Assembly: GCA_035556555.1 (NCBI GenBank)
Contig: DATMES010000059.1
Coordinates: 12,054-76,053 of the forward strand
Source: Frankiaceae bacterium
GTDB taxonomy: Bacteria; Actinomycetota; Actinomycetes; BP-191
Reading direction: 5' to 3'
DNA length: 64,000 nt
In this document: piece after piece, positions 35,673-57,489 of the stretch
Layout: each line of letters starts with the position of its first letter
Position numbering within the stretch: position 1 is the stretch's first letter
Notes under the pieces: generated by a model
What the model was told of the DNA's origin: nothing
Database searches by the model: none
What the model saw: only the letters and a program-made list of their open reading frames with translations
Position numbers and translations under genes: made by a program

Positions 35673-35841
35673 GCCAGCCGGGAGCCGGGGGGCCTGGCGG
35701 GTTCTTGCGGCGGCTGCGCTTCACGAGCAGCACGACGATGAGCACGACCGTGCCCACGACGAGGGCGAGGAACGCCAGCAGGATCAGGCCGACGATGGCG
35801 AGTCCGGCGCCCGTCGGGGCGGCGTCGGCGAGGGGGATCAT
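35656..35841 (-). CDS. Small single-TM membrane protein (about 61 aa), hypothetical
   Basis: MIPLADAAPTGAGLAIVGLILLAFLALVVGTVVLIVVLLVKRSRRK... Low confidence: it is a short ORF. Confidence 0.3.
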   Translation of the reverse strand: MIPLADAAPTGAGLAIVGLILLAFLALVVGTVVLIVVLLVKRSRRKNPPGPPAPGWPTPPA

Positions 35842-36680
35842 GCGGGTACCTCTCTCGGTCGGAACACCACGAGCGCCAGGACCGCGTACTCGACGTACGC
35901 GTGGTAGCTCGCGAGGGACGTATAGGCGATTTTGGTACCGGTCCACGCGGTCATGTAGCCGAACGCGAAAACTGCCGCCACCGCCGCCACGCCGACCCAC
36001 GCGATGCGCGGGAGGCGGGCCTGCGCGGGGCCGTTGCGCGGCAGGAACCAGCACCAGAACACGTAGTGCAGCACCTGGAGGAACGCGAACACCGCCAGCA
36101 GCCGCGCCGCCTCCGGCCCGCGCCACTCCGGCGGCGCGACCGTCGCGACGTGCCCCGACATCGGCCCCGCGAACGACACCGACTGGGACGACAGCGACGG
36201 CACGGGCAGCGCGCCGGTGAGCAGCAGCGCCGGCACGACGAGCAGCCAGGCGACCTGCACCGCGCGGAACGCCGTCCGCGCGCGGCCTGCCAGCCGGCGC
36301 GACCAGTCCCAGAGGAAGACGAACGGCACGAGGTTGTGCAGGTACGTCACCGCGACGAAGTAGTGGTCGAGGTGCGTCCACGCGATCACGCCGGCGACGA
36401 CGACGGCGGGCAGGCCGAACGCCGCGAGCACGGGCCGCGACCGCGCGCCCCACGCCATGCCGAATGCCAGGATCGCGAAGCCCGCGACGACCTCCACCCG
36501 CCGGCCAGGGGCGCCCACGAGGCGGGTCATGGCGATGACCGTGACCAGCGCGAGCACGCCGACCCGGAAGACGCCCGCGAACGACCCCGCCCACCGGGCC
36601 AGCACGTAGCGGAGCTCGAGGACGTTGTGCAGAATCCCCAGCACCATGAGCCCGACGACCGAGGCGAGCAGCGGCGCGCG
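35838..36680 (-). CDS. Polytopic integral membrane protein of unknown function; start uncertain
   Basis: Continuous run of hydrophobic helices in the C-terminal ~280 aa of ORF 35838..37100. The N-terminal part of that ORF is Arg/Asp-rich and looks spurious. Confidence 0.45.
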   Translation of the reverse strand, partial: RAPLLASVVGLMVLGILHNVLELRYVLARWAGSFAGVFRVGVLALVTVIAMTRLVGAPGRRVEVVAGFAILAFGMAWGARSRPVLAAFGLPAVVVAGVIAWTHLDHYFVAVTYLHNLVPFVFLWDWSRRLAGRARTAFRAVQVAWLLVVPALLLTGALPVPSLSSQSVSFAGPMSGHVATVAPPEWRGPEAARLLAVFAFLQVLHYVFWCWFLPRNGPAQARLPRIAWVGVAAVAAVFAFGYMTAWTGTKIAYTSLASYHAYVEYAVLALVVFRPREVPA

Positions 36681-36738
36681 CGCCGCGAGCACGGCCGCGA
36701 TCGCGACGTACCCAGCTGTCTCCGCGACGGGCCGCCAC

Positions 36739-37073
36739 GGATGAGCGGCTACGTCGCCGCGCTGCTCCTGACGCTGGCCGTCGAGCCGCCGCTGTACGCG
36801 CTCGCGCTGCGGCTGGGACTCGGCGTGCGGCCGCGGCGCGGGTACGTGGAAGGTCTGCTCGCCAACGCCACTAGTCATCCGCTCACCTGGCTCTTCCTCT
36901 TCCCGCTGACGGAGGGGTCGCTGGCCGCCGCCGCGCTGGTGGAGCTGTTCGTCGTGGCCTGGGAGGCCGGGCTGCTGCGCGTACGGCTTGGGCGCGACCT
37001 GCCGCTGCTGGTCGGGGTGTCGTTCGTCGTCAACGCCGTCTCGCTCGCGCTCGGCGCCGCCGTCCTCCGATGA
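36739..37073 (+). CDS. Small (~111 aa) membrane protein with 3 predicted TM segments, divergent from the preceding membrane gene
   Basis: [28 protein letters not shown]... hydrophobic segments. The upstream part of ORF 35901..37073 is antisense to another gene and is discounted. Confidence 0.4.
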
Positions 37074-37162
37074 AAGCAAACGGCGCGCACGTGCGAGCAT
37101 CGATTCGTGAAAGAAACCCCACGACAGCGCTCGCTGCGCTCACGCTGCCGCGGGGGCCCCGG

Positions 37163-38841: not shown

Positions 38842-39456
38842 CTAGCCGGGCTTGACGCAGGAGCGGGCGCCGGCGACGTACGGCTTGCCGCCGGTCGCGC
38901 GGTCGGCCTCGCGCGAGTCGTGCGCGTACACCTGCGGGGTCGCGTACGCCCCGACCCACCGGAAGGCGAACGCCGTCAGGCCGGTGATCCGCGCGCCGCG
39001 GGTGAACCTCCCGTACGCCCGCAGCGCGTCGACGGGCACGGTGAGGTGGACGGCGTTGCCGGCGACGCGGGCGGTGGCGTAGCCGAGGTTGGTCTCGGTC
39101 TCGCCGGCGTCGTCGTAGAGCCCGTACTTCGCGACGCCGCCGGTGGGGGTCAGGACGTACCAGACGAACACCGCAAGCGTCCCGCCCTGCCCGCTGAACC
39201 GCACGAGGTACCGGTGCCCCGCGGGCGAGGTCGGGCCGAACACCGACGGCGACCCCGCGACCCGGACGACCGCGGTGATGCGCCGCGCGTCGGAGACGAC
39301 GTCGGCGCTGAGCACGTCGAGGGAGGGGGTGTCGGCCAGGGCCGTGTCGCCGCGCGCGTCGACCAGCAGCCGGCAGTACGGCTTCGTGGCCGCGCCGGCG
39401 GGCGAGGCGCCGAGCAGCGCCAGCAGCGCGGCAGCGCAGACGGAACGGACTCGCAT
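38842..39456 (-). CDS. Secreted hypothetical protein (204 aa)
   Basis: Signal peptide (MRVRSVCAAALLALLGASPAGAA). No recognisable catalytic motif. Confidence 0.55.
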   Translation of the reverse strand: MRVRSVCAAALLALLGASPAGAATKPYCRLLVDARGDTALADTPSLDVLSADVVSDARRITAVVRVAGSPSVFGPTSPAGHRYLVRFSGQGGTLAVFVWYVLTPTGGVAKYGLYDDAGETETNLGYATARVAGNAVHLTVPVDALRAYGRFTRGARITGLTAFAFRWVGAYATPQVYAHDSREADRATGGKPYVAGARSCVKPG

Positions 39457-39551: not shown

Positions 39552-40379
39552 CTAGACGCCGACGGCGACGCGTTCCGGGGCGCCCTGCGGCTGCGGGATG
39601 CGGCGCAGCTCGTAGATCACGAGGCCGGCGAGGTGCACGAGGAAGAGCACGAGGAACAGCAGGATCGACCAGTACGTCGGCGTGGCCAGCGAGCCGGTGT
39701 TGAGGACCAGGGTCATCGTCTTCGGCTTGATCTTGGCCTTGAGCTCCTTGGCCGGCTCGTTGTCGGTCGCGGTGACGTCGGCGGGCCCGAACGTCACGCG
39801 GGCGTACTTGTAGCGGCCCTCGTCACGCGCGAGGCGGGTCTCGGTGATCTTGATGACGTTGGGCACGGTGATGTCGGCGGCGCCGACGCCGAGCTCGACG
39901 GCGTACTCCTCGGAGATCCGCTCGGCCGCGGCGGACTCGGCGGAGGCCTTGTCGCCCGCGGCCGACGTCACGGAGTCGTCGATCGCGATGAACGCGTCGC
40001 GGCCGGGCCCCTCCTCGAACTCCTTGAACTCACTCTGCAGCGCCGCGGGTCCGTTGGGGGAGGCGACCTCCCAGCGTTGCTCGGCGCCCTGCGGGCCGTA
40101 GTACTTCGGCGTCGACCGCGGGATGCCGAGCGGCTCGAAGCCGGGCACGCCGAACAGCCAGATCAGCGACAGCACCAGCCACGAGCCCCAGAACGCGACG
40201 CCCGAGACGAGGTACGCCTGCTTCGGCCCGAACGACGACTGCAGCAGCATCCACACGCCGCCGCAGAGGATGAGGAACATCAGGACGGTGCCGAAGACCG
40301 CGCGCGGGCCCTTGGTCTTGACCTCCTCCTGCGCCAGCAGCACCACCGGGTTGGCGGTCAGGGCGTACACGTTGGGCAC
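39552..40379 (-). CDS. Membrane protein of unknown function, last gene of the b6f-type operon (2 N-terminal TM, a soluble Ala/Glu-rich domain, 1 C-terminal TM)
   Basis: Hydrophobic segments (VFGTVLMFLILCGGVWMLL; WSILLFLVLFLVHLAGLVI). Start placed at an in-frame GTG 17 nt after the cytochrome c stop. Confidence 0.5.
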   Translation of the reverse strand: MPNVYALTANPVVLLAQEEVKTKGPRAVFGTVLMFLILCGGVWMLLQSSFGPKQAYLVSGVAFWGSWLVLSLIWLFGVPGFEPLGIPRSTPKYYGPQGAEQRWEVASPNGPAALQSEFKEFEEGPGRDAFIAIDDSVTSAAGDKASAESAAAERISEEYAVELGVGAADITVPNVIKITETRLARDEGRYKYARVTFGPADVTATDNEPAKELKAKIKPKTMTLVLNTGSLATPTYWSILLFLVLFLVHLAGLVIYELRRIPQPQGAPERVAVGV

Positions 40380-40395
40380 GACGAGCCTTCCTAGG

Positions 40396-41085
40396 TCAGT
40401 GAGCGGCGGCGAACGCGATGAGGCGCGAGAACGGTCCCGGCTGGTTGCCCAGAGCAAGCTCCGCGGCGTCCTCCTCCGGCAGCCCCTCCTGGATCGAGAT
40501 GAGGAAGTTGACGACGTCCTCGATCTGCTGGTCGTTCATCGGGCCGCCGTAGCCCAGGCCCCACGTCGGCATCGGGGTGCCGGGCCGGCCCTGCGCGATG
40601 GTGTCGTAGACGAAGCGGTACGCGTCGCGGACCGACTTGTTCTGGTCGATCATCTGGCGCTTGAAGATCTCGTGGAGGTTGGGCACCGGGTAGTCGGTGG
40701 CCTCGGCGTCGGCGTTGGCCTTGTACTGCGGCACGACACCGCCGCCGGCGAACGTCCCGTGACAGCGCGCGCACCCGGCCTGGAAGCCGTGCGCCCCGGG
40801 CTCGGCCTGCGCGTAGATGAACGCCCCGCGCTCGATCGACTCCTCGCGCTGCTCGAGCGCGGCGTCGTTGGAGCGCTGGTTCTCGAAGAACACGAAGTAG
40901 ATCGGCAGGTACAGCGCCAGGAACACGACGAGCAGCGTGCCCCAGCCCTGCCAGCGCTCGAGGATGTTGGTCTCGAGCTCGTCGTCGGAGGGCGCGGGGC
41001 GGAAGCCGATGGGGATGGAGAGCGGCTTGCGGCGCCGGACGACGGCGCCCTTGGCACGCTCGCCGCGCGGGGTGATGTCGCTCAT
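40396..41085 (-). CDS. Membrane-anchored monoheme c-type cytochrome (single CxxCH: CARCH)
   Basis: N-terminal TM (WGTLLVVFLALYLPIYFVFF), one CARCH heme-binding motif and a candidate Met axial ligand region (GTPMPTW). Confidence 0.7.
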   Translation of the reverse strand: MSDITPRGERAKGAVVRRRKPLSIPIGFRPAPSDDELETNILERWQGWGTLLVVFLALYLPIYFVFFENQRSNDAALEQREESIERGAFIYAQAEPGAHGFQAGCARCHGTFAGGGVVPQYKANADAEATDYPVPNLHEIFKRQMIDQNKSVRDAYRFVYDTIAQGRPGTPMPTWGLGYGGPMNDQQIEDVVNFLISIQEGLPEEDAAELALGNQPGPFSRLIAFAAAH

Positions 41086-41122
41086 CGTGCTTCCGCTCTC
41101 TCCTTCTATCGGTCAGGCCTGG

Positions 41123-41683
41123 TCAGCCCGTGCAGTGAGCGCCTTCGGGGTTCTGGTTGATCGTGTCCGTGCCGCGCGGGGGGCCGTCCTTGGGGTCGGC
41201 CGTGTCGACGATGACGTTGCCGCCGTCGATGACGATCGGGAAGTGCTGCAGGCCGGTCGGCGCGGGGCCGAACTCGTACTCGCCGGCCTTGTTGTAGCGG
41301 GAGCCGTGGCACGGGCACTCGAACCAGCCGCTGGTCTCGCACTGCGGGACCTTGCAGCCGAGGTGCGCGCACTTCTGGTAGACGGCGAGGAAGCCCTCGG
41401 CGGCGACGCCCTTGTAGAACGCCTCCTGGCCGGCGACCGGCTTGTACGCGACGAGGTACGTGCGCGCCTCGGCGTAGTACTTCCAGCCGTGCGGGATGGC
41501 GGCGAGCTCGCCCTTCAGATCGTCGACCTTGCCGAGGTTGATCTTCGCGCCGAAGCCGCCGCGCAGGCTCGGCCAGAGCATGCCGAGGCTCGCGGCGGCG
41601 AAGCCGCCCAGCCCGACCGCGGAACCGCCGAGCATGCTCAGCCGGAAGAAGTCCCGGCGGGACATGCCCTTCTTCTTGGCCAT
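41123..41683 (-). CDS. Rieske [2Fe-2S] iron-sulfur protein with a Tat signal
   Basis: Twin-arginine motif SRRDFFRL. Rieske boxes CAHLGC and CPCHGS. Confidence 0.85.
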   Translation of the reverse strand: MAKKKGMSRRDFFRLSMLGGSAVGLGGFAAASLGMLWPSLRGGFGAKINLGKVDDLKGELAAIPHGWKYYAEARTYLVAYKPVAGQEAFYKGVAAEGFLAVYQKCAHLGCKVPQCETSGWFECPCHGSRYNKAGEYEFGPAPTGLQHFPIVIDGGNVIVDTADPKDGPPRGTDTINQNPEGAHCTG

Positions 41684-41695
41684 CGTTGCGCCGCC

Positions 41696-42577
41696 TTAGA
41701 ACTCGAAGTAGAGGCCCTTTTGCCACGGGAACACGAAGTTGTATCCGGGTCCGCGGAACAGGGAGCCGATGGTCGACAGGATGGCCGAGAACATCATGAA
41801 CCAGGTGAACAGCATGATCGCGAACTTGCGGTTGGCGGGCCGCATCGACGGGTTCTTGTCGAGGTACGGGAACGCCATGAGGATGCCGAGCCCGATGCCG
41901 GGGATGAGCACGCCCGCGATCATCGGGTGGTAGTACCTCAGCAGCTCCTGGAGGCCCAGGAAGTACCAGGGCGCCTTGGAGGGGTTCGGCGTGAGGTTGA
42001 CATTGGCGAGGTCGAGCAGCGGGGCGTCGACCAGCGTCGAGAACACCGTGAGGAACGCCAGGCAGGCCAGCACCGCGACGAACTCCTCGAGGAGCAGGTG
42101 CGGCCAGACGTTGACCTTGTCGTCCTGGGTGCGCTCGACGCGCTGGATGCCCTCCGGCGGGACCATCGCCAGCAGGCGGTGGGTCATCTCGCCGGACAGC
42201 CCGCGGCCGCCGCCGCCCTTGCCCGCCGTGGCCGCGGCGACGCGGGCCTGGCGCTCGGCGGGGGACAGCGGGGTGGCGCGGGTGAGCGTGCTCGTACCGC
42301 CGCCGGCGGCGGCAGGAGCGGCTGCGGCAGCGGCGGCCGGAGCCGGGGCGGCAGCGGCGGGTGCGTCGGCCGTCGCGGCTGCGGCGGCGGGGGGCGCGGC
42401 GGCGGCGGGCGCTGACGCGGCGGCGGCGGCCTGCTGGGCCGGCGACGGGATGCCGGCGGCCTTGCGGGCCTTCTTCACCGCGGCGGACTTCGCCTTGGCG
42501 CGCGCCATCCGCTCCGAGTCGCCCGCGGCGATGGCGGCCGCGTAGACCTCGGGATCCGGCGTGATCTCTTCGCTCAT
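41696..42577 (-). CDS. Cytochrome b6f subunit IV (PetD)-like protein with an ~130-aa Ala/Pro-rich N-terminal extension
   Basis: C-terminal half matches subunit IV / the C-terminal cytochrome b (PWYFLGLQELLRYYHPMIAGVLIPGIGLGILMAFPYL, three TM helices). The N-terminus is low-complexity Ala-rich. Confidence 0.8.
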   Translation of the reverse strand: MSEEITPDPEVYAAAIAAGDSERMARAKAKSAAVKKARKAAGIPSPAQQAAAAASAPAAAAPPAAAAATADAPAAAAPAPAAAAAAAPAAAGGGTSTLTRATPLSPAERQARVAAATAGKGGGGRGLSGEMTHRLLAMVPPEGIQRVERTQDDKVNVWPHLLLEEFVAVLACLAFLTVFSTLVDAPLLDLANVNLTPNPSKAPWYFLGLQELLRYYHPMIAGVLIPGIGLGILMAFPYLDKNPSMRPANRKFAIMLFTWFMMFSAILSTIGSLFRGPGYNFVFPWQKGLYFEF

Positions 42578-42587
42578 GTCGACTCCC

Positions 42588-43385
42588 TTACAGAGGCCCG
42601 GAGATCCCGCCGTCCTTGCGGATCCGCCAGAAGTGGACGGCCATGAAGATGACCGCCACGAACGGCAGCGCGAGGACGTGGAGGACGTACCAGCGGAGAA
42701 GCGTCGGAGGCCCGATCTCGACCCCGCCGAGGAGGACGAACCGCACCTCCTTGCCGAACACGGGGGTGTAGCCCATCATCTGCGTGCCGACGGCGACGGC
42801 CCAGATGGCCAGCTGGTCCCACGGCAGCAGGTAGCCGGTGAACGACAGCAGCAGCGTCAGCAGCAGCAGGATGACGCCGACGACCCAGTTGAACTCTCTC
42901 GGGGCCTTGTACGCGCCGTGGTAGAAGACGCGCGCCATGTGCAGGAACACCGTGAACACCATGGCGTGCGCGGACCACCGGTGCATGTTGCGTACGAGCT
43001 GGCCGAACGCGATGCCGGACGAGAGGTTCTGGATGTCCTTGTACGCGAGCTCCTGGCCGAAGCCGGCGGAGGGCCGGTAGAAGAACATCAGGTAGATGCC
43101 GGTGACCGTCAGCAGGATGAAGAGGAAGAACGACAGCCCGCCGAGGCAGTACGTGTAGGTGAGCTTGAGGCCGTGACGCTTCAGCTTCACCGGGTGCAGG
43201 TGGTAGAGGACGTTGTTCATCGTCGCGAGCGCGCGGTCGCGCGACGTGTCCCGGTAGCCGGGGCGGTAGATCGAGCCCGGGCGGAAGATCGACTTCCAGA
43301 CCGCGCCGTCGCGCGGGTCCTTGGGCTTGACCATCTCCTCGAGGTGCTGCCGCACCTCGGCCTTGCGCCCGTCCTTGTCGGCCAC
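42588..43385 (-). CDS. Cytochrome b6-type (split cytochrome b, N-terminal four-helix) subunit
   Basis: Unmistakable b6 signatures: CLGG...HRWSAH, FLHMARVFY, GYLLPWDQLAIWAV, RWYVLHVLALP, HFWRIRKDGGISGPL, with four His heme ligands. Start at a GTG preceded by AAGGAAGG (ORF 42588..43643). Confidence 0.85.
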   Translation of the reverse strand: MADKDGRKAEVRQHLEEMVKPKDPRDGAVWKSIFRPGSIYRPGYRDTSRDRALATMNNVLYHLHPVKLKRHGLKLTYTYCLGGLSFFLFILLTVTGIYLMFFYRPSAGFGQELAYKDIQNLSSGIAFGQLVRNMHRWSAHAMVFTVFLHMARVFYHGAYKAPREFNWVVGVILLLLTLLLSFTGYLLPWDQLAIWAVAVGTQMMGYTPVFGKEVRFVLLGGVEIGPPTLLRWYVLHVLALPFVAVIFMAVHFWRIRKDGGISGPL

Positions 43386-43402
43386 GTCGGGTCGTACCTT
43401 CC

Positions 43403-43756
43403 TTATCGCTTCGGGCGAGCGGCGGCTTCGCCGATCTTCGAGTAGAACAGGGCGCCCGGCGGGCAGCGGTCGACGCAGATGCCGCAGCGGGTGCACTCGT
43501 TGTCGTCGATGATGAAGATCGCGCCCGCCGTCTCCGACAGGGTCTTCAGCTCGCTGTTCTCGGCGCCGGCGACGATCTCCGGGGACATCATGTAGATGCA
43601 CTCCCACGGGCAGACGTCCTCGCACGCGCGGCAGAGGATGCACAGCTCCGGGGACAGCGCGATGTGGCGCTTCGGCTTGACCCGCTCCTGCAGCCAGTTG
43701 GGGTCGACGGTGCCGAGGACGTAGTCGTCGTAGATCTCGACGCGGTTGTCGGTCAT
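43403..43756 (-). CDS. Dicluster 2x[4Fe-4S] ferredoxin
   Basis: Two CxxCxxCxxxCP motifs (CILCRACEDVCP and CTRCGICVDRCP). Confidence 0.8.
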   Translation of the reverse strand: MTDNRVEIYDDYVLGTVDPNWLQERVKPKRHIALSPELCILCRACEDVCPWECIYMMSPEIVAGAENSELKTLSETAGAIFIIDDNECTRCGICVDRCPPGALFYSKIGEAAARPKR

Positions 43757-43765
43757 GTCGACGCC

Positions 43766-44080
43766 CTAACGGTAGCCACCGGCGTCGCGCTTCATCTCGT
43801 CAGCGTCGGCGTTGACCGGGTTCATGCGCTGGTAGAGAGCGAAGGCGACGAACGTGACCGGGGTGATGGCGCCGTAGTAACCGACGACGATGAGGTCGCG
43901 CAGGCGCGGGCCGAGACCGAGGATGCCGAACGTCTTGGGCGCGAGCACCCAGCTCCAGTCGTTGGACCAGGTCAGGAGCGCGCTGGGGACGGACGCGAAG
44001 AAGATCATGAACAGCACGGTGAAGATGAACGACCCGATGCTCGCGCGGAGCCATGCCGACCGCTGGAGCAGGTTGCCCAT
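43766..44080 (-). CDS. Small membrane protein (about 104 aa, 2-3 TM), first gene of the b6f-type operon
   Basis: MGNLLQRSAWLRASIGSFIFTVLFMIFFASVPSALL... Start at the internal Met of ORF 43766..44272. Confidence 0.4.
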   Translation of the reverse strand: MGNLLQRSAWLRASIGSFIFTVLFMIFFASVPSALLTWSNDWSWVLAPKTFGILGLGPRLRDLIVVGYYGAITPVTFVAFALYQRMNPVNADADEMKRDAGGYR

Positions 44081-44279: not shown

Positions 44280-44392
44280 GGTTACTGGTGAGTAGCGGCG
44301 CGCCGTATGGGGGAACTGGTGAGCCACGACGTCGCTACTCACCAGTAACCGCGGGTCGGCGGCGGCTCGCGGGCCGGGTACTGCCGGGCGCG
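44280..44392 (+). repeat. Structured repeat, copy A: 18-bp perfect inverted arms (GGTTACTGGTGAGTAGCG / CGCTACTCACCAGTAACC) around a 35-bp spacer, plus a shared tail. Lies in the divergent promoter region between the b6f-type operon and resA, and overlaps the resA 5' end
   Basis: Seen directly. A second copy at ~48198-48292 has identical arms, the first 20 nt of the spacer inverted, and a shared tail (GCGGG...CTGCCGGGCGCG). The ACTGGTGAG motif occurs three times per copy. Confidence 0.7.
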
Positions 44393-44944
44393 GTGGCGGC
44401 GGTCGTGCTCGTGGCCGGGTGCACCGGCGGGGGGTCGGAGACCACGTCCGGTACGCAGCGTTTCGTCGCAGGGGACGGGGTCGTGCACTACGTCCCCGCG
44501 GCCAACCGCGAGCCCGGTCCCGACATCGCCGGCGAGACGCTCGACGGGGAACGGCTCGACGTCGGCACGCTGCGCGCGGGCGGCGTCGCGGTCGTCAACA
44601 TCTGGGGCTCCTGGTGCGCCCCCTGCAAGAAGGAGCAGGGCGCGCTGGAACGCGTCGCCCGCGCGACCCGTTCCCGAGGGGTGCGGTTCGTCGGCATCAA
44701 CATCCGGGACTCCTCGAAGACCGCGGCGAGGATGCACGTGACGAAGTACGACGTGACGTACCCCTCGCTCTACGACCCCTCGGCCCGGCTGCTGCCACGC
44801 TTCGAGATCGCGCCCAAGACGATCCCCAGCACGTACGTCATCGACCCCGGCGGGCGCATCGCGGCGTACGTCTACGGCCCCATCGAGGAGCAGCCGCTGA
44901 CCGACCTCGTGGACCGGGTGCTCGCGGAGGCGGGCCCGGCGTGA
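44393..44944 (+). CDS. resA: Thioredoxin-like thiol-disulfide oxidoreductase ResA/TlpA family (lipoprotein-type signal, WCxxC)
   Basis: VLVAGC lipobox-like signal. The WCAPCKKE thioredoxin motif. Conserved position before ccdA. The start is uncertain: no canonical start lies upstream of the n-region RRRLAGR because the repeat arm occupies it. Shown from the first in-frame GTG. Confidence 0.7.
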   Translation: MAAVVLVAGCTGGGSETTSGTQRFVAGDGVVHYVPAANREPGPDIAGETLDGERLDVGTLRAGGVAVVNIWGSWCAPCKKEQGALERVARATRSRGVRFVGINIRDSSKTAARMHVTKYDVTYPSLYDPSARLLPRFEIAPKTIPSTYVIDPGGRIAAYVYGPIEEQPLTDLVDRVLAEAGPA

Positions 44945-45708
44945 ACGGCATCCAGGACACCGTCCTCAACGGCTCGCTGCTCGCGGCGCTGCCGCTGGCG
45001 CTGCTGGCGGGGCTGGTGTCGTTCCTCTCGCCGTGCGTGCTGCCGCTGGTCCCCGGCTACCTCTCGTACATCACCGGCCTCACCGGCGCCGACCTCGCCG
45101 AGGAGGAGGCCGGCGGCCGCGCGAAGCGCCGGGCGATGATCGGCGCGCTGCTGTTCGTGGGCGGGTTCTCGGTCGTGTTCGTCAGCGCGGGGGCGGCGTT
45201 CGGGGCGGCGGGTTCGTTCTTCGCGGACTACGCCACCGTCATCACGCGCGTGCTGGGCGTCGTGACGATCGTGCTCGGGCTGGCGTTCATGGGGGCGATG
45301 CAGCGGATCCCGTTCTTCTCGCGGGAGTTCAAGGTCCACAAGCTGCCGGCGACGGGGCTGGCGGGGGCGCCGTTCCTCGGGGTGCTGTTCGGGATCGGCT
45401 GGACGCCGTGCGCCGGACCGACGCTGACCGCGGTCAACTCGCTCGCGTACTCCACCGGCACGGCGGGCCGCGGGGCGGTGCTGTCGCTGGCGTACTGCCT
45501 CGGTCTCGGGCTGCCGTTCATCCTCGCGGGGCTGGCGTTCGAGAAGTCGATGTCGATGTTCGCGGTCGTCAAGCGGCACTACGCGCTGGTGACGCGGATC
45601 GGCGGCGGGCTGCTCGTCGTCATCGGCCTGCTGCTCGTGACCGGCTTCTGGGACCGGATCGTGGCGTACATGCAGGTCTGGGTCGGCGGCTTCGAGACGG
45701 TCGTATGA
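44941..45708 (+). CDS. ccdA: Cytochrome c-type biogenesis thiol:disulfide interchange membrane protein CcdA
   Basis: DsbD-beta core with the two conserved Cys (FLSPCVLPLVPGY and GWTPCAGP). Confidence 0.85.
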   Translation: MNGIQDTVLNGSLLAALPLALLAGLVSFLSPCVLPLVPGYLSYITGLTGADLAEEEAGGRAKRRAMIGALLFVGGFSVVFVSAGAAFGAAGSFFADYATVITRVLGVVTIVLGLAFMGAMQRIPFFSREFKVHKLPATGLAGAPFLGVLFGIGWTPCAGPTLTAVNSLAYSTGTAGRGAVLSLAYCLGLGLPFILAGLAFEKSMSMFAVVKRHYALVTRIGGGLLVVIGLLLVTGFWDRIVAYMQVWVGGFETVV

Positions 45709-47228
45709 CGGCCACGCTCTCGACGTCGCCGGAGGAGCGCGAGGTCTCGCCTCGCCGCGTCCGGCCGCTCCGCCGCGCCTGGGGCCAGCTGACGTCGATG
45801 CGGACGGCGCTGCTGCTGCTGTTCCTGCTGGCGCTGGCCGCGGTGCCCGGCTCGCTGCTGCCGCAGCGCAACCTCGACCTGCTCGCGGTGCAGACGTACT
45901 ACGCCGAGCACCCCTCGCTCGCGCCGACGCTGGACCGGCTGTACCTGTTCGACGTGTACGCCTCGCCGTGGTTCATGGCGATCTACCTCGCGCTGATGAT
46001 CTCGCTGGTCGGCTGCCTCGCGCCGCGGATCCGGCTGCACGCGCGGGCACTCGTACGCCGTCCGCCCGCGCCGCCCGCGCACCTCTCGCGTCTCCCCGCC
46101 TACCGGTCCTGGGTGACGGACGCGGCGCCGGCCGAGGTGGAGGCGTCGGCCGCGAAGGCGCTGCGGCGCTGGCGGGTGCGCTCGTACGACGGCCGCGGCG
46201 TCGCCGCCGAGCGCGGCTACCTCCGCGAGACCGGCAACCTCCTCTTCCACGTGGCCCTGCTCACGCTGCTCGTCGGCATCGGGATCGGCGCGGCGTACGG
46301 CTACCAGGGCGCGGTGCTGGTGGTGGAGGGCGACACGTTCGTCAACACGCCCGCCGCCTACGACGAGCTCCGTCCAGGCCGGCTGAACTCGGTGGAGGAC
46401 CTGCCGCCGTTCGAGGTCACACTCGACGACTTCCGGGCGACCTATCTGGACAACGGGGCGCCGACGTCGTTCGCGGCGGATGTCCGGTGGCGCCCCTCGC
46501 CCGACGACGCGGTGCGGCCGCGGACGGTGAAGGTGAACGAGCCCCTCACCGTCGACGGCGCGCGCGTCTACCTGCTCGACCACGGCTACGCGCTGCACTT
46601 CACCGCCACGCTGCCCGACGGCACCGTGATCTACGACCAGTGGCAGCCGTTCCTCCCCGAGCGCGGCGACCCGAACCTCGCCTCCGACGGGGCGTTGAAG
46701 ATCACCGACCTGCCCGGCGGGCTGCCGGACATCGGGCTGCGGGGTCTGTTCACGCCGACGCTGGGGGTGCGGCAGGGGTTCGCGTACTCGCAGTTCCCCG
46801 CGGCGCACCTGCCGGCGTTCGCGTACGAGGTCTGGGCCGGCGACCTCGGCCTGTCGAGCGGCGTACCCCAGTCGGTCTACGACCTCGACACGTCGAAGAT
46901 GACGAAGACGAGCAACGGCATCGTCTTCGAGGGCCAGACCATCGAACGGCTGCCCGGCGGGGCCACGCTGACGTTCGACGGGGTGAAGGACTTCGCGGTC
47001 TTCCAGGTGACGGTGGACCCGGGCAAGTACCTCGTGCTCGGCTCGGCCGTCGCGGCGCTGACCGGTCTCGTGCTGTCGCTGCGGGTACGGCGGCGGCGGG
47101 TCTGGGTGCGGGCGACGCCGACCGAGGCCGGTACCCTCGTGGAGGTCGGCGGGCTGGCCCGGCAGGACCCCGAGGCGTTCGCGCCCGAGGTCGCCAGGCT
47201 CGCCGAACGAATGGGAGGACCACCCTGA
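45705..47228 (+). CDS. resB: Cytochrome c biogenesis protein ResB/CcsB
   Basis: ResB architecture: N-terminal TMs (MRTALLLLFLLALAAVPGSLLPQ), a large soluble domain and a C-terminal TM. Sits between ccdA and ccsA. Confidence 0.85.
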   Translation: MTATLSTSPEEREVSPRRVRPLRRAWGQLTSMRTALLLLFLLALAAVPGSLLPQRNLDLLAVQTYYAEHPSLAPTLDRLYLFDVYASPWFMAIYLALMISLVGCLAPRIRLHARALVRRPPAPPAHLSRLPAYRSWVTDAAPAEVEASAAKALRRWRVRSYDGRGVAAERGYLRETGNLLFHVALLTLLVGIGIGAAYGYQGAVLVVEGDTFVNTPAAYDELRPGRLNSVEDLPPFEVTLDDFRATYLDNGAPTSFAADVRWRPSPDDAVRPRTVKVNEPLTVDGARVYLLDHGYALHFTATLPDGTVIYDQWQPFLPERGDPNLASDGALKITDLPGGLPDIGLRGLFTPTLGVRQGFAYSQFPAAHLPAFAYEVWAGDLGLSSGVPQSVYDLDTSKMTKTSNGIVFEGQTIERLPGGATLTFDGVKDFAVFQVTVDPGKYLVLGSAVAALTGLVLSLRVRRRRVWVRATPTEAGTLVEVGGLARQDPEAFAPEVARLAERMGGPP

Positions 47229-48169
47229 TGCCGATCGACGCCGGCCTGGCGAGCGCGAGCGACAACCTGCTCTTCGCGGCCGTCGTGGCGTACGTCGTCG
47301 CGATGCTCGGCTACTTCGTCGAGTTCGCGTCCGGTCGTCGCGTGCCCTTGCCGATCGCGGGTGGCGCCACGGACACCGCTCTCCCGCCGTCGTACGTGGC
47401 GTCGGTCGAGTCCGCGTCGCGGCGCGGGCGGCTCGGGCTGTGGTGCGGCCGTGGCGCTGTGGCGCTGACGGTGGTGGGCTGGGGGCTGCACGCTGGTGCC
47501 GCCGTGCTGCGCGGCCTCGCGACCGACCGGGTGCCGTGGGGGAACATGTACGAGTTCTCCTCGATGGTCTGCCTGATCGGCGTGACGTCGTTCCTCGTGC
47601 TGCTGGTACGGCAGCCGGTGCGCTACCTCGGCGGCTTCGTGATGCTGCCGGTGGTGCTGACGCTGGGGCTCGCGTCGTCGGTGCTGTACGCGCCCGCGGC
47701 TCCTTTGGTACCCGCGCTCAACTCGTACTGGATCAAGATCCACGTGGTCGCGGCGATGACGGCGTTCGGCGTGTTCATGGTGGGGATCGTGGCGACGCTG
47801 CTGTATCTGGTGGCTGTGCGGCTGGAGGCCCGGGGGCGCGGTGCGTCGCGGCTGCCGGCCGCCGCCTCGCTGGACCGGGTCGCCTACAGGACGATCGCCT
47901 TTGCCTTCCCGATCTGGACCTTTGCCGTGATGGCCGGCGCGGTGTGGGCCGAGGCGTCGTGGGGGCGGTACTGGGGCTGGGACCCCAAGGAGACGTGGTC
48001 GTTCATCACGTGGGTGCTCTACGCGGGCTACCTGCACGCGCGCGCGACGGCCGGGTGGCGCGGGTCCCGCGCGGCCTGGGTGGCGGTCGCCGGCTTCGTG
48101 GCGCTGATGTTCACGTACTACGGCGTCAACATCTGGATCCCCGGCCTCCACTCGTACTCGGGCGTGTAG
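47228..48169 (+). CDS. ccsA: Cytochrome c-type biogenesis protein CcsA/ResC (heme exporter/lyase subunit)
   Basis: WWD-domain region (WGRYWGWDPKETWSFITW) with the conserved His residues. Confidence 0.85.
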   Translation: MPIDAGLASASDNLLFAAVVAYVVAMLGYFVEFASGRRVPLPIAGGATDTALPPSYVASVESASRRGRLGLWCGRGAVALTVVGWGLHAGAAVLRGLATDRVPWGNMYEFSSMVCLIGVTSFLVLLVRQPVRYLGGFVMLPVVLTLGLASSVLYAPAAPLVPALNSYWIKIHVVAAMTAFGVFMVGIVATLLYLVAVRLEARGRGASRLPAAASLDRVAYRTIAFAFPIWTFAVMAGAVWAEASWGRYWGWDPKETWSFITWVLYAGYLHARATAGWRGSRAAWVAVAGFVALMFTYYGVNIWIPGLHSYSGV

Positions 48170-48197: not shown

Positions 48198-48292
48198 GGT
48201 TACTGGTGAGTAGCGACGTCGCGGCTCACCAGTTCGTGCTCGCTGTTTGTCGCTACTCACCAGTAACCGCGGGCCCACTGCCGGGCGCGCCG
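48198..48292 (+). repeat. Structured repeat, copy B: same 18-bp inverted arms as copy A, 35-bp spacer with an inverted core, shared tail. Lies between ccsA and the CcoN-like gene
   Basis: Seen directly. The arms are identical to copy A. Spacer ACGTCGCGGCTCACCAGTTC is the reverse complement of the copy A spacer segment GAACTGGTGAGCCACGACGT (1 mismatch). Confidence 0.7.
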
Positions 48293-48360
48293 GTTTCAGC
48301 CCAGCGCGGCGCGCCGACTATCCTCTGCGTCGCTCGCCCGACGCGTTCCCGGAGGCTCCT

Positions 48361-49749
48361 GTGACTGTCACGACGTCGGCGTCGACGGCGTCGGAGCGGG
48401 AGGCCGCCGCCTGGGAGGCGCCGTACGGTCCCGCGCTGACGTACCTCGTCGCCGGCACGTTCTGCCTCGCCATCGGCGGCCTGCTCATGCTGCTCGCCGC
48501 GGCGCAGACGGTGTCGCCGGACCTGTTCACGATCGGCGGGTCGACGTCGTTCGGCCGCATCCGCCCGGCGGCCCACCTGCTGCTCGTCTACGGCGGCCTC
48601 GGCATGGTGGGCAACGGCGTCGCCCTCGACGTCGCGCGCCGCGCCGCCAAGGCCCCCGCGAGCCTCGACAAGCTGGTCCGCGCCGCGGGCGCCGTGACGA
48701 CGATCGGCGTCGTCGGGAGCGTCGCCGCGGTCCTGCTCGGGCACTCGACGGGGCGCGTCGGCTTCGAGATGCCGCGCCCGTTCGCGGCGCTGCTCGCGCT
48801 CGGCCAGCTTCTCGTGCTGCTGGCGGTGCTGCGTACGCTCTCTCGCCGCACGACGAGCGACCTGCACCCGTCGCTGTGGTTCGTGGTGGCGGCGCTGTTC
48901 TGCGCGCCGTTCGTCATCCTCGCGGGCTCGCTGCCCGCCGTCCGCGGCATCAACGACGAGATCGTGCTGTCGTTCGGCATCTCCGGGCTGAAGCTGCTCT
49001 GGCTGATCCCGCTCGGCATCGGCGCCGCGCTCTACGTCGTCCCCAACGCCGGCCGCGCCGCGCTGCACAGCCGCCAGCTGGCGCTGGTGGCGTTCTGGGG
49101 CTGGTTCCTCTTCGCGCCGTTCGCCGGGCCGATGCGCCTCGTGTCGGGCCCCGCGCAGGAGTGGCTCGAGACGGTCGGCGTCGCCGCGTCGATCGCGCTC
49201 GGCGCGCCGTTGCTCGCGGTCGTCGTGCTGCTCCTCGCGACGTACTCCCGGCGTACGTCGCTCGCCCACGGTGCCGACCTGCGCCTCGCCCTCGCGGGCG
49301 TGGGGCTGCTGGCGTTCTGGGGGCTCACGTCGATGCTGACGGCGGGCCGTACGGCCGGCGCCCTCCTGCACGGCTCGGTCGCGGCGGACGGGCTCGCCGA
49401 GCTGGCGCTGTTCGGGGTCGCGGGGGCGCTGCTGCTGGCGGGGGTGTTCCACGCGCTGCCGAGCGTCACGGGCGACCGCATCGCCAACGTCCGCGTGGCC
49501 GGCTCCACCGTCTGGCTGCTCGCGGCCGGCGCCGCTCTCGTCGCGCTGTCGCTGCTCGTCGGCGGCTACGTCCAGGGGATGCTCCTGGAGCAGGGCGTCC
49601 GCACCGGCGGCGAGTCGTTCGCCGAGGTCGCCGACGCGATCGAGCCGATGCTCTGGCTCCGCGTCGTAGGCGAGGCGCTCGTCGCGCTGGCCTGGGTGAT
49701 GGCGTTCCAGCAGGTGTTCTCGACGTCGACCGCGAGCGACGGGGAGTAG
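48361..49749 (+). CDS. 12-TM heme-copper-oxidase-like (CcoN/NorB-like) membrane subunit lacking the canonical adjacent His-His CuB pair
   Basis: 462 aa with 12 predicted TM helices. 7 His spread across helices but no HH dipeptide. GTG start preceded by GGAGG. Translationally coupled to a bona fide CcoO-like gene. Confidence 0.55.
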   Translation: MTVTTSASTASEREAAAWEAPYGPALTYLVAGTFCLAIGGLLMLLAAAQTVSPDLFTIGGSTSFGRIRPAAHLLLVYGGLGMVGNGVALDVARRAAKAPASLDKLVRAAGAVTTIGVVGSVAAVLLGHSTGRVGFEMPRPFAALLALGQLLVLLAVLRTLSRRTTSDLHPSLWFVVAALFCAPFVILAGSLPAVRGINDEIVLSFGISGLKLLWLIPLGIGAALYVVPNAGRAALHSRQLALVAFWGWFLFAPFAGPMRLVSGPAQEWLETVGVAASIALGAPLLAVVVLLLATYSRRTSLAHGADLRLALAGVGLLAFWGLTSMLTAGRTAGALLHGSVAADGLAELALFGVAGALLLAGVFHALPSVTGDRIANVRVAGSTVWLLAAGAALVALSLLVGGYVQGMLLEQGVRTGGESFAEVADAIEPMLWLRVVGEALVALAWVMAFQQVFSTSTASDGE

Positions 49750-49751
49750 CG

Positions 49752-50264
49752 ATGCCGAGCCTGTTCCCCGTGATCGCCGGGCCAGCGCTGCTCGTCGCCG
49801 CCGGCTACGGCGTCACCGTCGTCGCGCCGGCCACCGAGCGGACCAACACCGTCCGCACCGAGGAGACCCGCGAGTACACCGTCGGCGCCGGCAAGGGCCG
49901 CGAGATCTACGCCGCCAACGGCTGCGTCTACTGCCACTCGCTGCAGCGCCGCGACACGTACGCCGACGCCGCGCTCGGGCCCGCGCCGTCCTCGAACAAG
50001 GAGGCGCTGAACGACCGACCGGCGATGCTCGGCGACGTCCGCTACGGCCCCGACCTCTCCTGCGCCGGCGACCATGTGCCCGGTGCCGCCGAGGACGCCG
50101 ACACCGACGCGCGGATCGACGCGATGGTCGCGTACCTGGAGCACCCGGAGCGCGCGCACGAGGGGTCGACGATGCCGTCGTACGCCTTCCTGAAGCACGA
50201 CGACCTGCGCCGGCTGGCGTCGTACCTCGTCGAGCACACCTGCGCCGCGGAGGCCGCCGAATGA
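49752..50264 (+). CDS. Membrane-anchored monoheme cytochrome c subunit of cbb3/NOR type (CcoO/FixO-like)
   Basis: N-terminal TM, then GREIYAANGCVYCHS (CxxCH) and the FixO-like motifs GPDLSCAGD and MPSYAFL. Strong family resemblance to cbb3 subunit II. Confidence 0.7.
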   Translation: MPSLFPVIAGPALLVAAGYGVTVVAPATERTNTVRTEETREYTVGAGKGREIYAANGCVYCHSLQRRDTYADAALGPAPSSNKEALNDRPAMLGDVRYGPDLSCAGDHVPGAAEDADTDARIDAMVAYLEHPERAHEGSTMPSYAFLKHDDLRRLASYLVEHTCAAEAAE

Positions 50265-55705: not shown

Positions 55706-55824
55706 CCCGTCGGGGTGGAGTGACTAGAGCGGAAATGGCCCCATCTCGCCATGGCTCAAATCGGGCAGATCGCGAAGGCTTGCCCGAAGTCCTCCCATAC
55801 GGCCATCACGACAGGGGGCGCGTC

Positions 55825-57489
55825 ATGCGCTTGCACCGTCCGGTACTCGCCGGCCTCGTTCTTGGTACGGCAGTCCTTCCCGTGACCGCGGCGAACGCCG
55901 CCACCGGTGTGACCGCGGCAGGTAGCGCCGTGTCCACCGCCACGCTCGCCACCTTCTCGGTGGGCGCGTTGGCCGACCTCGTCGAGGCGCAGAGCGTCTC
56001 GATCGGGTCGCTCGCCGCGACCGCTCAGACGGTGACGAACGCCGCTCCGTCGGTGACGTTCGTCCCGATCACGCTGAACGGCGTCAAGACCGGCGCCGTC
56101 ACCGTGACCGCGGCGAACAGCCCGCAGACCGTGGGCGCCGTCAACACCAACGACCTCGGAGTCCTCTCCGCGACCAGCCCGGGCGCGACGCTCATGGCCG
56201 ACGACTCGTCCTCGGCGCTCGAGACGTCCCTCGGGTCGCTCAGCGTGCTCGGCCTTCCCGTGACGCTGGACGGCGGCCTCGACGTCGGCTCGGCGACGAG
56301 CGCGACGCAGTCGCAGGCCGGCAAGGCGCTCAGCATCTCCAACGTCGAGCTGCCGAACCTCGCCGACCTCCTCGCGGCCCTCGGCCTCGACCTCACCAAG
56401 CTTCCCGCCGACACGCTCAACGGCCTCATCGAGGACCTCAACGTCGCGCTCGACGGCGCGCAGCAGACCGCGATGGACAACGCCAACACGGCGATCGGCC
56501 TCGCGCAGCAGGCCGTCGACGACGCGGACGGCGACGTCGCCGACGCGACGACCGCGCTCTCCGCGGCCGCGGCCACGCTGACGTCCGAGCTGTCCAGCGC
56601 GAACTACCCGATCGGCACCTCGCCGATGACGGCCGAGGAGTGGGCGGCGCTCGACGCGACCGTGCAGGCCACCATCCTGGCGCTGAACGTCGGCGACACC
56701 GGCCTGGCCGACGCGATCACGGCGTACGACGCCGCCGTCGCCGCGCTCGCGCTCGCCGAGGACGCCATCGCGCCGCTCACCGAGGCGCTCGCCAACGCCA
56801 TCGCCGCGCTCGGCGGCATCGTGGACGGCATCCTCCAGGGCCTGCCGCTGCTCGAGGTCGGCGCCGCCGAGATCTCGACCAAGGCGCTCGTCGGCTCCGC
56901 CAAGACCGCGAACGTCACCGGCACCATCAGCGGCGTCAAGGTCCTCGGTACGGACATCCTCGAGACCGTCACGGGCGACAGCGAGCTCGACGTGGCAGGC
57001 CTCGTGGGCGATGTCGCCGACGACGTCAACGCCGCGCTCGGCACCGTCTCCGCCGCGCTCTCCGACGTCCTGTCCAGCGTGACCGGCGCCACCGGCCTCG
57101 TCGTTCCGGCTCCGGAGATCGCGCTCATGGAGAAGACGACGGCAACGGGTACGGACGGCGCGTTCGGCACCGCCGACGCGACCGTGACGGCGCTGTCGGT
57201 CAGCCTCGGCTCGGTGACCGTTCCCGCGATCTACGCCCTCGACGACGCCGCCGCCCTGCCGGGCCTCGGCGCCATCACCGGCGGCTTCCAGACGGCGCCG
57301 CTGTCCATGAAGGTCGGCTCGCTCGTCGAGTCGGCGCGGTTCCGCCCCGGTGCCGCGGCACCGAACGCGCCGACCCCCGGCAACACCGGCTCGCTGCCCT
57401 CGACCGGTGGCCCTGAGGGCCTCGCGATCGTCGCGGTGATCGGCACGGCGCTCGCCGTCGGCATCCGCCGGATGCGTACGCAGCAGTAA
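55825..57489 (+). CDS. Secreted cell-wall-anchored surface protein (LPSTG sortase motif), paralogous in architecture to the 2070-3509 protein
   Basis: Signal peptide (MRLHRPVLAGLVLGTAVLPVTAANAATG). Ala/Thr/Leu/Asp-rich body. C-terminal LPSTGG, a hydrophobic stretch and RRMRTQQ. Confidence 0.65.
   Translation: MRLHRPVLAGLVLGTAVLPVTAANAATGVTAAGSAVSTATLATFSVGALADLVEAQSVSIGSLAATAQTVTNAAPSVTFVPITLNGVKTGAVTVTAANSPQTVGAVNTNDLGVLSATSPGATLMADDSSSALETSLGSLSVLGLPVTLDGGLDVGSATSATQSQAGKALSISNVELPNLADLLAALGLDLTKLPADTLNGLIEDLNVALDGAQQTAMDNANTAIGLAQQAVDDADGDVADATTALSAAAATLTSELSSANYPIGTSPMTAEEWAALDATVQATILALNVGDTGLADAITAYDAAVAALALAEDAIAPLTEALANAIAALGGIVDGILQGLPLLEVGAAEISTKALVGSAKTANVTGTISGVKVLGTDILETVTGDSELDVAGLVGDVADDVNAALGTVSAALSDVLSSVTGATGLVVPAPEIALMEKTTATGTDGAFGTADATVTALSVSLGSVTVPAIYALDDAAALPGLGAITGGFQTAPLSMKVGSLVESARFRPGAAAPNAPTPGNTGSLPSTGGPEGLAIVAVIGTALAVGIRRMRTQQ

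Follow-up and report, generated by a model that had tools for sequence, protein, structure and literature searches.

A split b6-type Rieske/cytochrome b operon with a linked ferredoxin gene in a Frankiaceae genome and its relatives in Actinomycetota

Gene content of the operon

Here we report the analysis of a b6-type Rieske/cytochrome b operon in the window, a 64-kb stretch of DNA from the metagenome-assembled genome (MAG) of a soil bacterium of the Frankiaceae. The operon consists of seven open reading frames (ORFs) at positions 39552-44080, all on the minus strand and in the same direction, with successive intergenic gaps from the first gene (g1) to the last (g7) of 9, 17, 10, 12, 37, and 16 nucleotides (nt) (Table 1). 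A first-pass annotation made from the letters of the window had described tightly spaced, co-directional genes; all of these ORFs were recovered in place, with gaps of 9-37 nt, as were all of the motifs that it quoted (HRWSAH, PWDQ, HFWRIRKDGGISGPL, CAHLGC/CPCHGS, and CARCH), in addition to a twin-arginine motif. The proteins of the window include accessions HWL38140-HWL38144, which were retrieved by exact look-ups; subunit IV has the locus tag VNQ77_18285. Pfam domains were detected for the ferredoxin (Fer4, 49 bits), cytochrome b6 (Cytochrome_B, PF00033, 143.8 bits), subunit IV (Cytochrom_B_C, PF00032, 37.2 bits), the Rieske protein (Rieske, 37.8 bits), and the cytochrome c (Cytochrom_C, 39.6 bits), while an Rfam scan of the operon returned sub-threshold chance matches only.

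Table 1. Features of the operon and of its surroundings in the window (aa, amino acids; TM, transmembrane)
Feature	Position	Strand	Description
g1, small membrane protein	43766-44080	-	104 aa; 2 predicted TM helices; first gene of the operon
Ferredoxin (fdx)	43403-43756	-	117 aa; 2x[4Fe-4S]; soluble; NuoI-like
Cytochrome b6	42588-43385	-	265 aa; 4 TM; GTG start
Subunit IV (PetD-like)	41696-42577	-	293 aa; 3-TM core and N-terminal extension
Rieske [2Fe-2S] protein	41123-41683	-	186 aa; twin-arginine signal/anchor (SRRDFF)
Class I monohaem cytochrome c	40396-41085	-	229 aa; CARCH; one N-terminal TM anchor
g7, membrane protein	39552-40379	-	275 aa; 3 TM helices
ResA-like thioredoxin, CcdA, ResB, CcsB	44339-48169	+	Divergent from the operon; System II cytochrome c maturation; not part of the complex
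CcoN-like and CcoO-like proteins	48247-50264	+	Directly after ccsB; 500-aa membrane protein, then anchored monohaem cytochrome c (CVYCH)
GGTTACTGGTGAGTAGCG, first inverted pair	44280-44350		Divergent region between the b6 operon and resA
GGTTACTGGTGAGTAGCG, second inverted pair	48198-48268		Between ccsB and the CcoN-like gene
204-aa ORF	38842-39456	-	95 nt downstream of g7; signal-peptide/lipoprotein-like N-terminus
420-aa ORF	35838-37100	-	Coding-like GC content at third codon positions
589-aa ORF	55720-57489	+	Coding-like GC content at third codon positions

Among solved structures, the b6 protein was most similar to the chloroplast and cyanobacterial cytochromes b6 (154.8 bits, with 43% identity to spinach b6 over 187 residues), whereas the mycobacterial and corynebacterial QcrB structures scored 83-92 bits (~89 bits for mycobacterial QcrB). 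In NCBIfam, the same protein reached 296.7 bits with the ExtP model NF040969 (cut-off 290), 197.9 bits with the cytochrome b6 model PRK03735, and 107.4 bits with QcrB_actin (cut-off 500). The first-pass reading of a split b6/subunit IV pair that differs from the actinobacterial QcrCAB type is thus supported, and the two Pfam matches fall on separate ORFs of four and three TM helices, split after helix D with a 10-nt spacer between them. The structural alignment covers the four haem histidines, the cysteine of YCLGG, PWDQ, and the C-terminal RK(D)GGISGPL; equivalents of the haem ligands His86, His100, His187, and His202 are present in alignment with the spinach and Chlamydomonas proteins, and the YCLGG cysteine is the predicted site of covalent attachment of haem ci. 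The b6 protein also carries a conserved N-terminal cytoplasmic extension of ~55 aa.

Subunit IV is divergent, with 49.7 bits against the ExtQ model (cut-off 150). Its motif at the quinol oxidation (Qo) site is APWY, since SKAPWYFLGLQE (SKAPWYFLG) is aligned on the PEWY site of solved cytochromes b. The core is preceded by an extension of ~145 aa, in which a conserved amphipathic helix motif at the N-terminus leads into a low-complexity linker rich in Ala, Pro, and Glu. The extension had been regarded as an unusual Ala/Pro-rich addition of ~130 aa; it is real, but its length is about 140-150 aa, and it is a trait of the whole family (77-146 aa where the starts are well called) rather than something peculiar to this one gene. 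Just ahead of helix E, subunit IV contains the motif WPHLLxxE[F/M], in which the Glu is kept in every variant found. By-eye alignment with PetD suggests that this Glu adjoins the Phe facing haem ci; in menaquinone organisms, low-potential haem ci has been linked to a Glu ligand (PMC12954380).

The ferredoxin matches Pfam Fer4 and Fer4_7 and scores 40 bits with the NuoI subfamily model, under its cut-off; it has no TM helix, and the Pfam scan detected no FAD/NAD(P) domain (Pyr_redox, NAD_binding) in it. The best NCBIfam matches of the Rieske protein are the b6f PetC models (~56 bits, all under their cut-offs), compared to 27.4 bits for QcrA_actin (cut-off 275), and its cluster-binding boxes, CAHLGC and CPCHGSRY, are PetC-like. 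A Ser/Tyr pair in Rieske box II predicts a high-potential cluster (Baymann et al., PMC3509893). The cytochrome c (Pfam Cytochrom_C and Cytochrome_CBB3) has a TM segment at residues 49-67 and a single CxxCH motif, and it is proposed to be the electron exit on the outer side. Neither g1 nor g7 has a match in Pfam or NCBIfam. The ATG of g1 is preceded, six nt upstream, by the sequence GAGGAAGG, which resembles a ribosome-binding site; the product has two hydrophobic segments, matches a profile of the small two-TM ORFs found upstream of fdx in other loci (29.9 bits, E 1e-10), and is probably a small structural subunit or assembly factor. For g7, we adopted the start called on an identical Logan contig, which lies 26 codons into the longest ORF; the protein has an alpha/beta domain of ~150 aa outside the membrane and an invariant His249 in its last TM helix.

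Distribution, genomic setting, and relatives

To survey the distribution of the operon, one genome per species was scanned with the b6 query, yielding at least 583 matching stretches, of which the best 80 loci were analyzed; the counts of loci given below refer to these. All 80 belong to the Actinomycetota and contain the same operon in a conserved location, and the rarity implied by the first-pass annotation does not hold. Identity of the b6 protein amounts to 90-95% in Frankiaceae and Mycobacteriales MAGs, 84-85% in Nitriliruptoria, 70-78% in many MAGs assigned to Actinomycetes or Actinomycetota, and 68-76% in Acidimicrobiia, among them Aquihabitans sp. G128 with a complete genome (L077). 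A protein search added Egibacteraceae, Nitriliruptor, and the cultured Salsipaludibacter albus. The cultured carriers are S. albus and Aquihabitans in this analysis, and Ilumatobacter according to the literature; among the best 80 loci there is neither a named Frankia nor another cultured isolate of the Mycobacteriales.

Within the limits of the contigs, none of the 80 loci departs from the gene order fdx-b6-subunit IV-Rieske-cytochrome c, and fdx lies directly upstream of b6 in 78 of them, the other two being cut off by contig ends. A small two-TM ORF precedes fdx in the loci inspected, and g7-like genes follow the cytochrome c gene in most loci outside the Acidimicrobiia. The sequence motifs are similarly constant: CxGG is found in all 80 relatives (mostly as FCLGG or LCLGG, with YCLGG in the clade of the window), RKDGGISGPL in 76 of 79, and APWY in 71 of 71, while both CxxCxxCxxxCP motifs of the ferredoxin and the RR and CPCHGS.Y motifs of the Rieske protein are conserved across the family. 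Among the orthologous cytochromes c, 37 are monohaem, that of the window included, and 23, from Nitriliruptoria and Acidimicrobiia, are dihaem. The monohaem form, of 216-308 aa, is that of the window's clade and of most unnamed Actinomycetes MAGs; the dihaem orthologues, from among L006, L007, L055-L080, and L082, have 338-610 aa. The dihaem form resembles QcrC and may indicate in which lineages the complex is the main complex III.

The backbone of the window is typical of Actinomycetes, with hemD/cobA, hemL, a histidine phosphatase gene, dus, and resA-ccdA-resB-ccsB. The products of the latter cluster match AhpC-TSA/Redoxin, DsbD_TM, ResB (441 bits), and Cytochrom_C_asm (167.6 bits) in Pfam, and the cluster is followed, still within the window, by menaquinone genes of the futalosine type, encoding UbiD and an MqnC/E-like radical SAM enzyme. 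In most lineages the operon sits between hemL and resA-ccdA-resB-ccsB, and it neighbors ccdA in 51 loci, resB in 39, and hemL nearby in 23. The operon and resA are transcribed away from each other in the window and in the other members of its clade; in S. albus the arrangement is co-directional, hemA-hemC-hemD...hemB...hemL-thioredoxin-[small ORF]-fdx-b6-subIV-Rieske-dihaem c-[311 aa]-resA-ccdA-resB-ccsB. Distances among the Fdx, b6, and Rieske proteins track those among CcdA, ResB, and CcsB (r=0.92, Mantel p=0.001, 25 loci), although two deep groups partly drive this correlation. The GC content at third codon positions (GC3) of the seven genes is 0.87-0.98, matching their neighbors and the rest of the window; given this native codon composition, the slightly lower regional GC of the operon (0.68-0.70 versus 0.72-0.75) is attributed to membrane-protein composition and not to foreign origin. 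The conserved locus, the covariation with flanking genes, and the native codon composition argue for an old, vertically inherited actinobacterial module that has been lost from most cultured Actinomycetes.

A separate exhaustive, profile-free search of 1.84 billion representatives returned 741 proteins at E<=1e-30. Outside the family, the closest 50%-identity representatives are 52-63% identical to b6, share the conserved N-terminal region, and have APWY or AAWY at the Qo site; one of them is from the Planctomycetota. Nine such relatives were retrieved, of which six have b6 fused to subunit IV and eight lack the CxGG cysteine. In the fused APWY form of L083 (938-7612) and L084, two JGI metagenome contigs whose cytochrome b is 54% identical to the b6 of the window, the cytochrome b gene comes after genes for a 612-aa GltD-like Fe-S/FAD NAD(P) oxidoreductase and a Rieske protein and before multihaem cytochromes. 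L087 has the split form in the same order as the window, Fdx-b6-subIV-Rieske, and L085 encodes a long cytochrome b of the planctomycete type followed by a 72-aa ferredoxin. Cytoplasmic Fe-S partners thus appear, from gene neighborhoods, to recur around this branch of the superfamily. Three apparently natural ferredoxin-b6 fusions (P0292, P0255, and P0380) seem to stem from frameshifts or truncations in the gene calls and were not used as Rosetta-stone evidence.

Because of the APWY motif of subunit IV at the Qo site, the split cytochrome b, and the CxGG motif, the predicted complex is provisionally assigned to the APWY clade; it is not of the actinobacterial QcrCAB type. The clade probably overlaps with subfamily G of Dibrova et al. 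APWY cytochromes b were reported in delta-proteobacteria, Chloroflexi, Nitrospirales, Planctomycetes, and deep Firmicutes, and the few actinobacteria listed with a split cytochrome b include one Acidimicrobidae strain, Ilumatobacter coccineum, the only actinobacterial member of the clade noted before (Kao & Hunte 2014, PMC4122944). For a described b6-type complex of Actinobacteria, our literature searches returned only the mention in that comparative study. The window shares with the clade the Qo motif, the split, and the haem ci motif on the b6 part, as well as the N-terminal region WxSxFR...NxxLHxHP that it has in common with the 52-63% identical relatives. It differs in having YCLGG (FCLGG or LCLGG in family members) where WCMGG is typical, in its partners (a small dedicated ferredoxin and, where the clade has multihaem cytochromes, a class I cytochrome c with one or two haems), and in the long low-complexity extension of subunit IV, the g1 and g7 genes, and the fixed site near hemL and the ccs genes. 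The ferredoxin, the extended subunit IV, g1/g7, and the hemL-ccs position are the features in which this complex is a variant.

With b6f (PetB/PetD/PetC) the complex shares the 4+3 TM split, the four His, the Cys35 equivalent in YCLGG, PWDQ, the C-terminus RK(D/Q)GISGPL, and the Rieske boxes CxHLGC and CPCHGSxY. In contrast to b6f, it has APWY instead of PEWY, no cytochrome f, no PetG/L/M/N detectable with Pfam or NCBIfam, a putative menaquinone instead of a plastoquinone substrate, an extra ferredoxin, extended N-termini, and a non-photosynthetic host, and it is not a true b6f. The Firmicute and heliobacterial QcrABC/PetCBD complexes likewise have a split cytochrome b with haem ci in Gram-positive menaquinone organisms, and an acidic residue near the haem ci site of subunit IV is probably a further shared feature, as judged from a by-eye alignment; however, their Qo motif is PDWY or PEWY, the Bacillus subunit IV is fused to cytochrome c, the Rieske gene comes first, and there is no ferredoxin gene. 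The earlier assignment specifically to the heliobacterial, bacillar, or cyanobacterial architecture is not upheld, given the APWY motif, the subunit IV unfused to cytochrome c, and the lack of cytochrome f; the nearest relatives are instead complexes of the APWY type from other phyla, several with Fe-S or flavoprotein partners. Actinobacterial QcrCAB belongs to the same superfamily and phylum and probably has the same substrate, menaquinol, and its dihaem cytochrome c is matched in the orthologous operons of Nitriliruptoria and Acidimicrobiia; its QcrB, unlike the protein pair studied here, is long, fused, of the PDWY type, and without haem ci, its gene order and chromosomal location are different, and the window has the sub-threshold QcrB_actin and QcrA_actin scores given above and a single CxxCH. 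Finally, the Rieske/cytochrome b complexes of the anammox bacterium Kuenenia (PMC12954380) also have a b6-type core with haem cN, a high-potential Rieske protein in a menaquinone organism, and Fe-S partner proteins on the cytoplasmic side, and the 54% identical b6 relative lies in exactly such an operon; the window differs from them in that the only Fe-S partner is a 117-aa ferredoxin with neither an FAD nor an NAD(P) domain, and its cytochrome c is monohaem as opposed to multihaem or hydroxylamine oxidoreductase (HAO)-like.

Proposed function and alternative readings

Beyond the observed cofactor motifs, gene linkage, and conservation, homology to the solved b6f and bc1 complexes suggests a Q-cycle function, and we consider it likely that the complex is a menaquinol:cytochrome c oxidoreductase with an extra Fe-S subunit on the cytoplasmic side. 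Menaquinol would be oxidized at the outer-side site formed by b6, the APWY region of subunit IV, and the Tat-exported Rieske protein. The first electron would leave the Rieske cluster for the anchored monohaem cytochrome c, which would hand it to a terminal acceptor, and the second would cross the membrane from haem bL to haem bH and reach haem ci at the inner-side quinone site; such a Q-cycle would build proton-motive force. The ferredoxin is most probably a further subunit, placed at the cytoplasmic face close to haem ci, because it is strictly linked to b6 and because Fe-S partners recur at L083/L084, L085, and L087. Both b6 and subunit IV may hold it in place with their conserved N-terminal extensions in the cytoplasm, and g1 and g7 are probably small membrane subunits or assembly factors.

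Several points weigh against this Q-cycle scheme. The predicted APWY site lacks the acidic residue that binds quinol in PEWY and PDWY enzymes, and it has been suggested that APWY complexes may run in reverse (Kao & Hunte 2014, PMC4122944). The Ser/Tyr pair of the CPCHGSRY box, with its predicted high potential, would fit a plain menaquinol Q-cycle poorly. The ferredoxin has no counterpart in canonical bc1 and b6f complexes, its contact with the complex is putative, and so is the terminal acceptor of the monohaem cytochrome c. As of 2014, no member of the APWY clade had been characterized in vitro or in vivo (PMC4122944), and our literature searches found no later characterization of one. Co-transcription of the genes is putative, and scans for promoters and terminators of the operon gave nothing beyond chance.

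The textbook view is that Actinomycetota use a bcc-aa3 supercomplex. It is conceivable, although on balance rather unlikely, that the b6-type complex takes the role of QcrCAB as the only or main complex III of this organism, as it perhaps does in Nitriliruptoria and Acidimicrobiia. This would agree with the 68-95% identity of b6 across classes, with the embedding of the operon in a cluster for haem and cytochrome c biogenesis, with the dihaem orthologous cytochrome c of the two latter classes, as in bcc complexes, and with the finding that neither the 64-kb window nor any of the 80 loci fetched contains a second cytochrome b or Rieske gene. However, the operon of the window encodes a monohaem cytochrome c, where bcc complexes have a dihaem one, and 613 of the 618 actinobacterial cytochromes b in RefSeq were long in 2014; all 613 came from Actinobacteridae, and none of the split ones did (PMC4122944). 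The best 80 loci include no named Frankia or cultured Mycobacteriales isolate, which implies that the cultured relatives rely on QcrCAB, and parsimony predicts QcrCAB in the MAG as well, in which case the complex would be accessory, as the first-pass annotation proposed.

Somewhat less probable, in our view, is a reading in which the low-potential branch opens to the cytoplasm through haem ci and the ferredoxin, so that the Q-cycle would not close and the complex would carry out electron bifurcation, reducing a cytoplasmic acceptor of low potential, or, running in reverse, ferredoxin-driven quinone reduction (FQR). An FQR activity of b6f has long been debated. In favor of such a route, the ferredoxin is strictly linked to b6, the nearest relatives adjoin a GltD-like Fe-S/FAD NAD(P) oxidoreductase, and the high-potential Ser/Tyr signature of the Rieske protein stands alongside menaquinone genes, the same mismatch that was used in the anammox study to argue for very low-potential b haems (PMC12954380); the route parallels the proposal for the anammox Rieske/cytochrome b complexes with NAD(P) oxidoreductase subunits, and Kao & Hunte tie APWY to reverse operation. 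The case is purely inferential, though: flavin and NAD(P) domains are lacking from the ferredoxin, the operon encodes no partner enzyme, and CxGG and the invariant Glu by the predicted haem ci site are compatible with a normal menaquinone-reducing inner-side (Qi) site, as in Firmicutes. Slightly less likely again is the combination of a ferredoxin wired to haem ci, with bifurcation or a reverse FQR-like activity, and an ancestral complex III of Actinomycetota. With a high-potential Rieske cluster acting on low-potential menaquinol, one electron would then move uphill in potential to cytochrome c and the other, at very low potential, via bL, bH, and ci, to the cytoplasmic [4Fe-4S] clusters, and the long QcrB type would later have replaced the ancestral complex in most Actinomycetes.

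Should the Q-cycle interpretation with its additional Fe-S subunit be correct, many Actinomycetota, including Mycobacteriales and Frankiaceae lineages, carry a b6-type complex with haem ci. The fixed hemL-ccs site would then bear on the dispute over whether the split or the long cytochrome b came first, and on whether Actinomycetes gained the long QcrB horizontally (Kao & Hunte 2014; Dibrova et al. 2017). The linked ferredoxin would provide a minimal system for the role of haem ci and for exchange between Rieske/cytochrome b complexes and cytoplasmic Fe-S carriers, a matter that concerns both b6f cyclic flow and the anammox complexes and that the cultured carriers make testable. A ferredoxin wired to haem ci would sharply raise the significance of the complex, which, if the bifurcation reading were true, would be a simple model for that chemistry in cultured aerobes.

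The remaining explanations are very improbable. Many b6 homologues are named "selenite/tellurite reduction operon b-type cytochrome ExtP" by NCBI, because the NF040969 cut-off is exceeded by 6.7 bits. That the operon is a selenite/tellurite reduction system, ExtOPQ, is opposed by the sub-threshold ExtQ score and by gene content: the Geobacter ext cluster encodes the multihaem ExtKL/M/N/S, the porin ExtI, and the rhodanese ExtH and lacks a ferredoxin, and the experiments of that study were confined to the porin (PMC5877670), whereas ORF and Pfam scans of the operon and its flanks found counterparts of none of these proteins. An ExtP or selenite function was rejected on these grounds, and the automatic name is misleading for these proteins and should not be taken as a function. 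Equally improbable is that the split is a frameshifted long cytochrome b, or the operon a recent import from cyanobacteria or Firmicutes, for which the slightly lower regional GC and the strikingly chloroplast-like C-terminus of b6 might be cited. A frameshift or pseudogene origin was rejected in view of the split site shared by 71+ loci, the 10-nt spacer, the separate start of subunit IV with its own conserved extension of ~140 aa, and the b6-like C-terminus kept in 71-80 related loci; recent horizontal transfer from phototrophs or Firmicutes was rejected given GC3, the conserved chromosomal position, and the covariation with flanking genes, and the identity to spinach b6 is only 43%, compared with 52-63% to the APWY-type relatives.

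Neighboring features of the window

The two genes that follow ccsB encode a CcoN-like protein (Pfam COX1, 103.8 bits; 63.8 bits with the ccoN model, cut-off 583) and a CcoO-like cytochrome c. Alignment to structures of cbb3 oxidases shows that the former lacks the CuB histidines and the haem b3/b histidine pair, and the genes look like a degenerate cbb3-type pair. Of the fetched loci, only L001 and L002, the closest relatives, share the pair.

Four copies of the 18-nt sequence GGTTACTGGTGAGTAGCG are present in the window, in two inverted pairs with 35-nt spacers, where 0.06 matches are expected by chance, and each spacer contains a third, degenerate copy. The element is missing from L001, L002, and all other loci; it could represent either an operator shared by the two sites or a mobile element of small, palindromic type.

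The 204-aa ORF downstream of g7 has no match in Pfam or NCBIfam, and tblastn searches for it were negative in L001 and the other loci; the identical Logan contig (L081) carries it too, and it probably lies outside the conserved operon. Two further long ORFs, of 420 and 589 aa, have no Pfam match; the former sits between the hemL/histidine phosphatase pair and dus, within the stretch of genes between hemL and the b6 operon.

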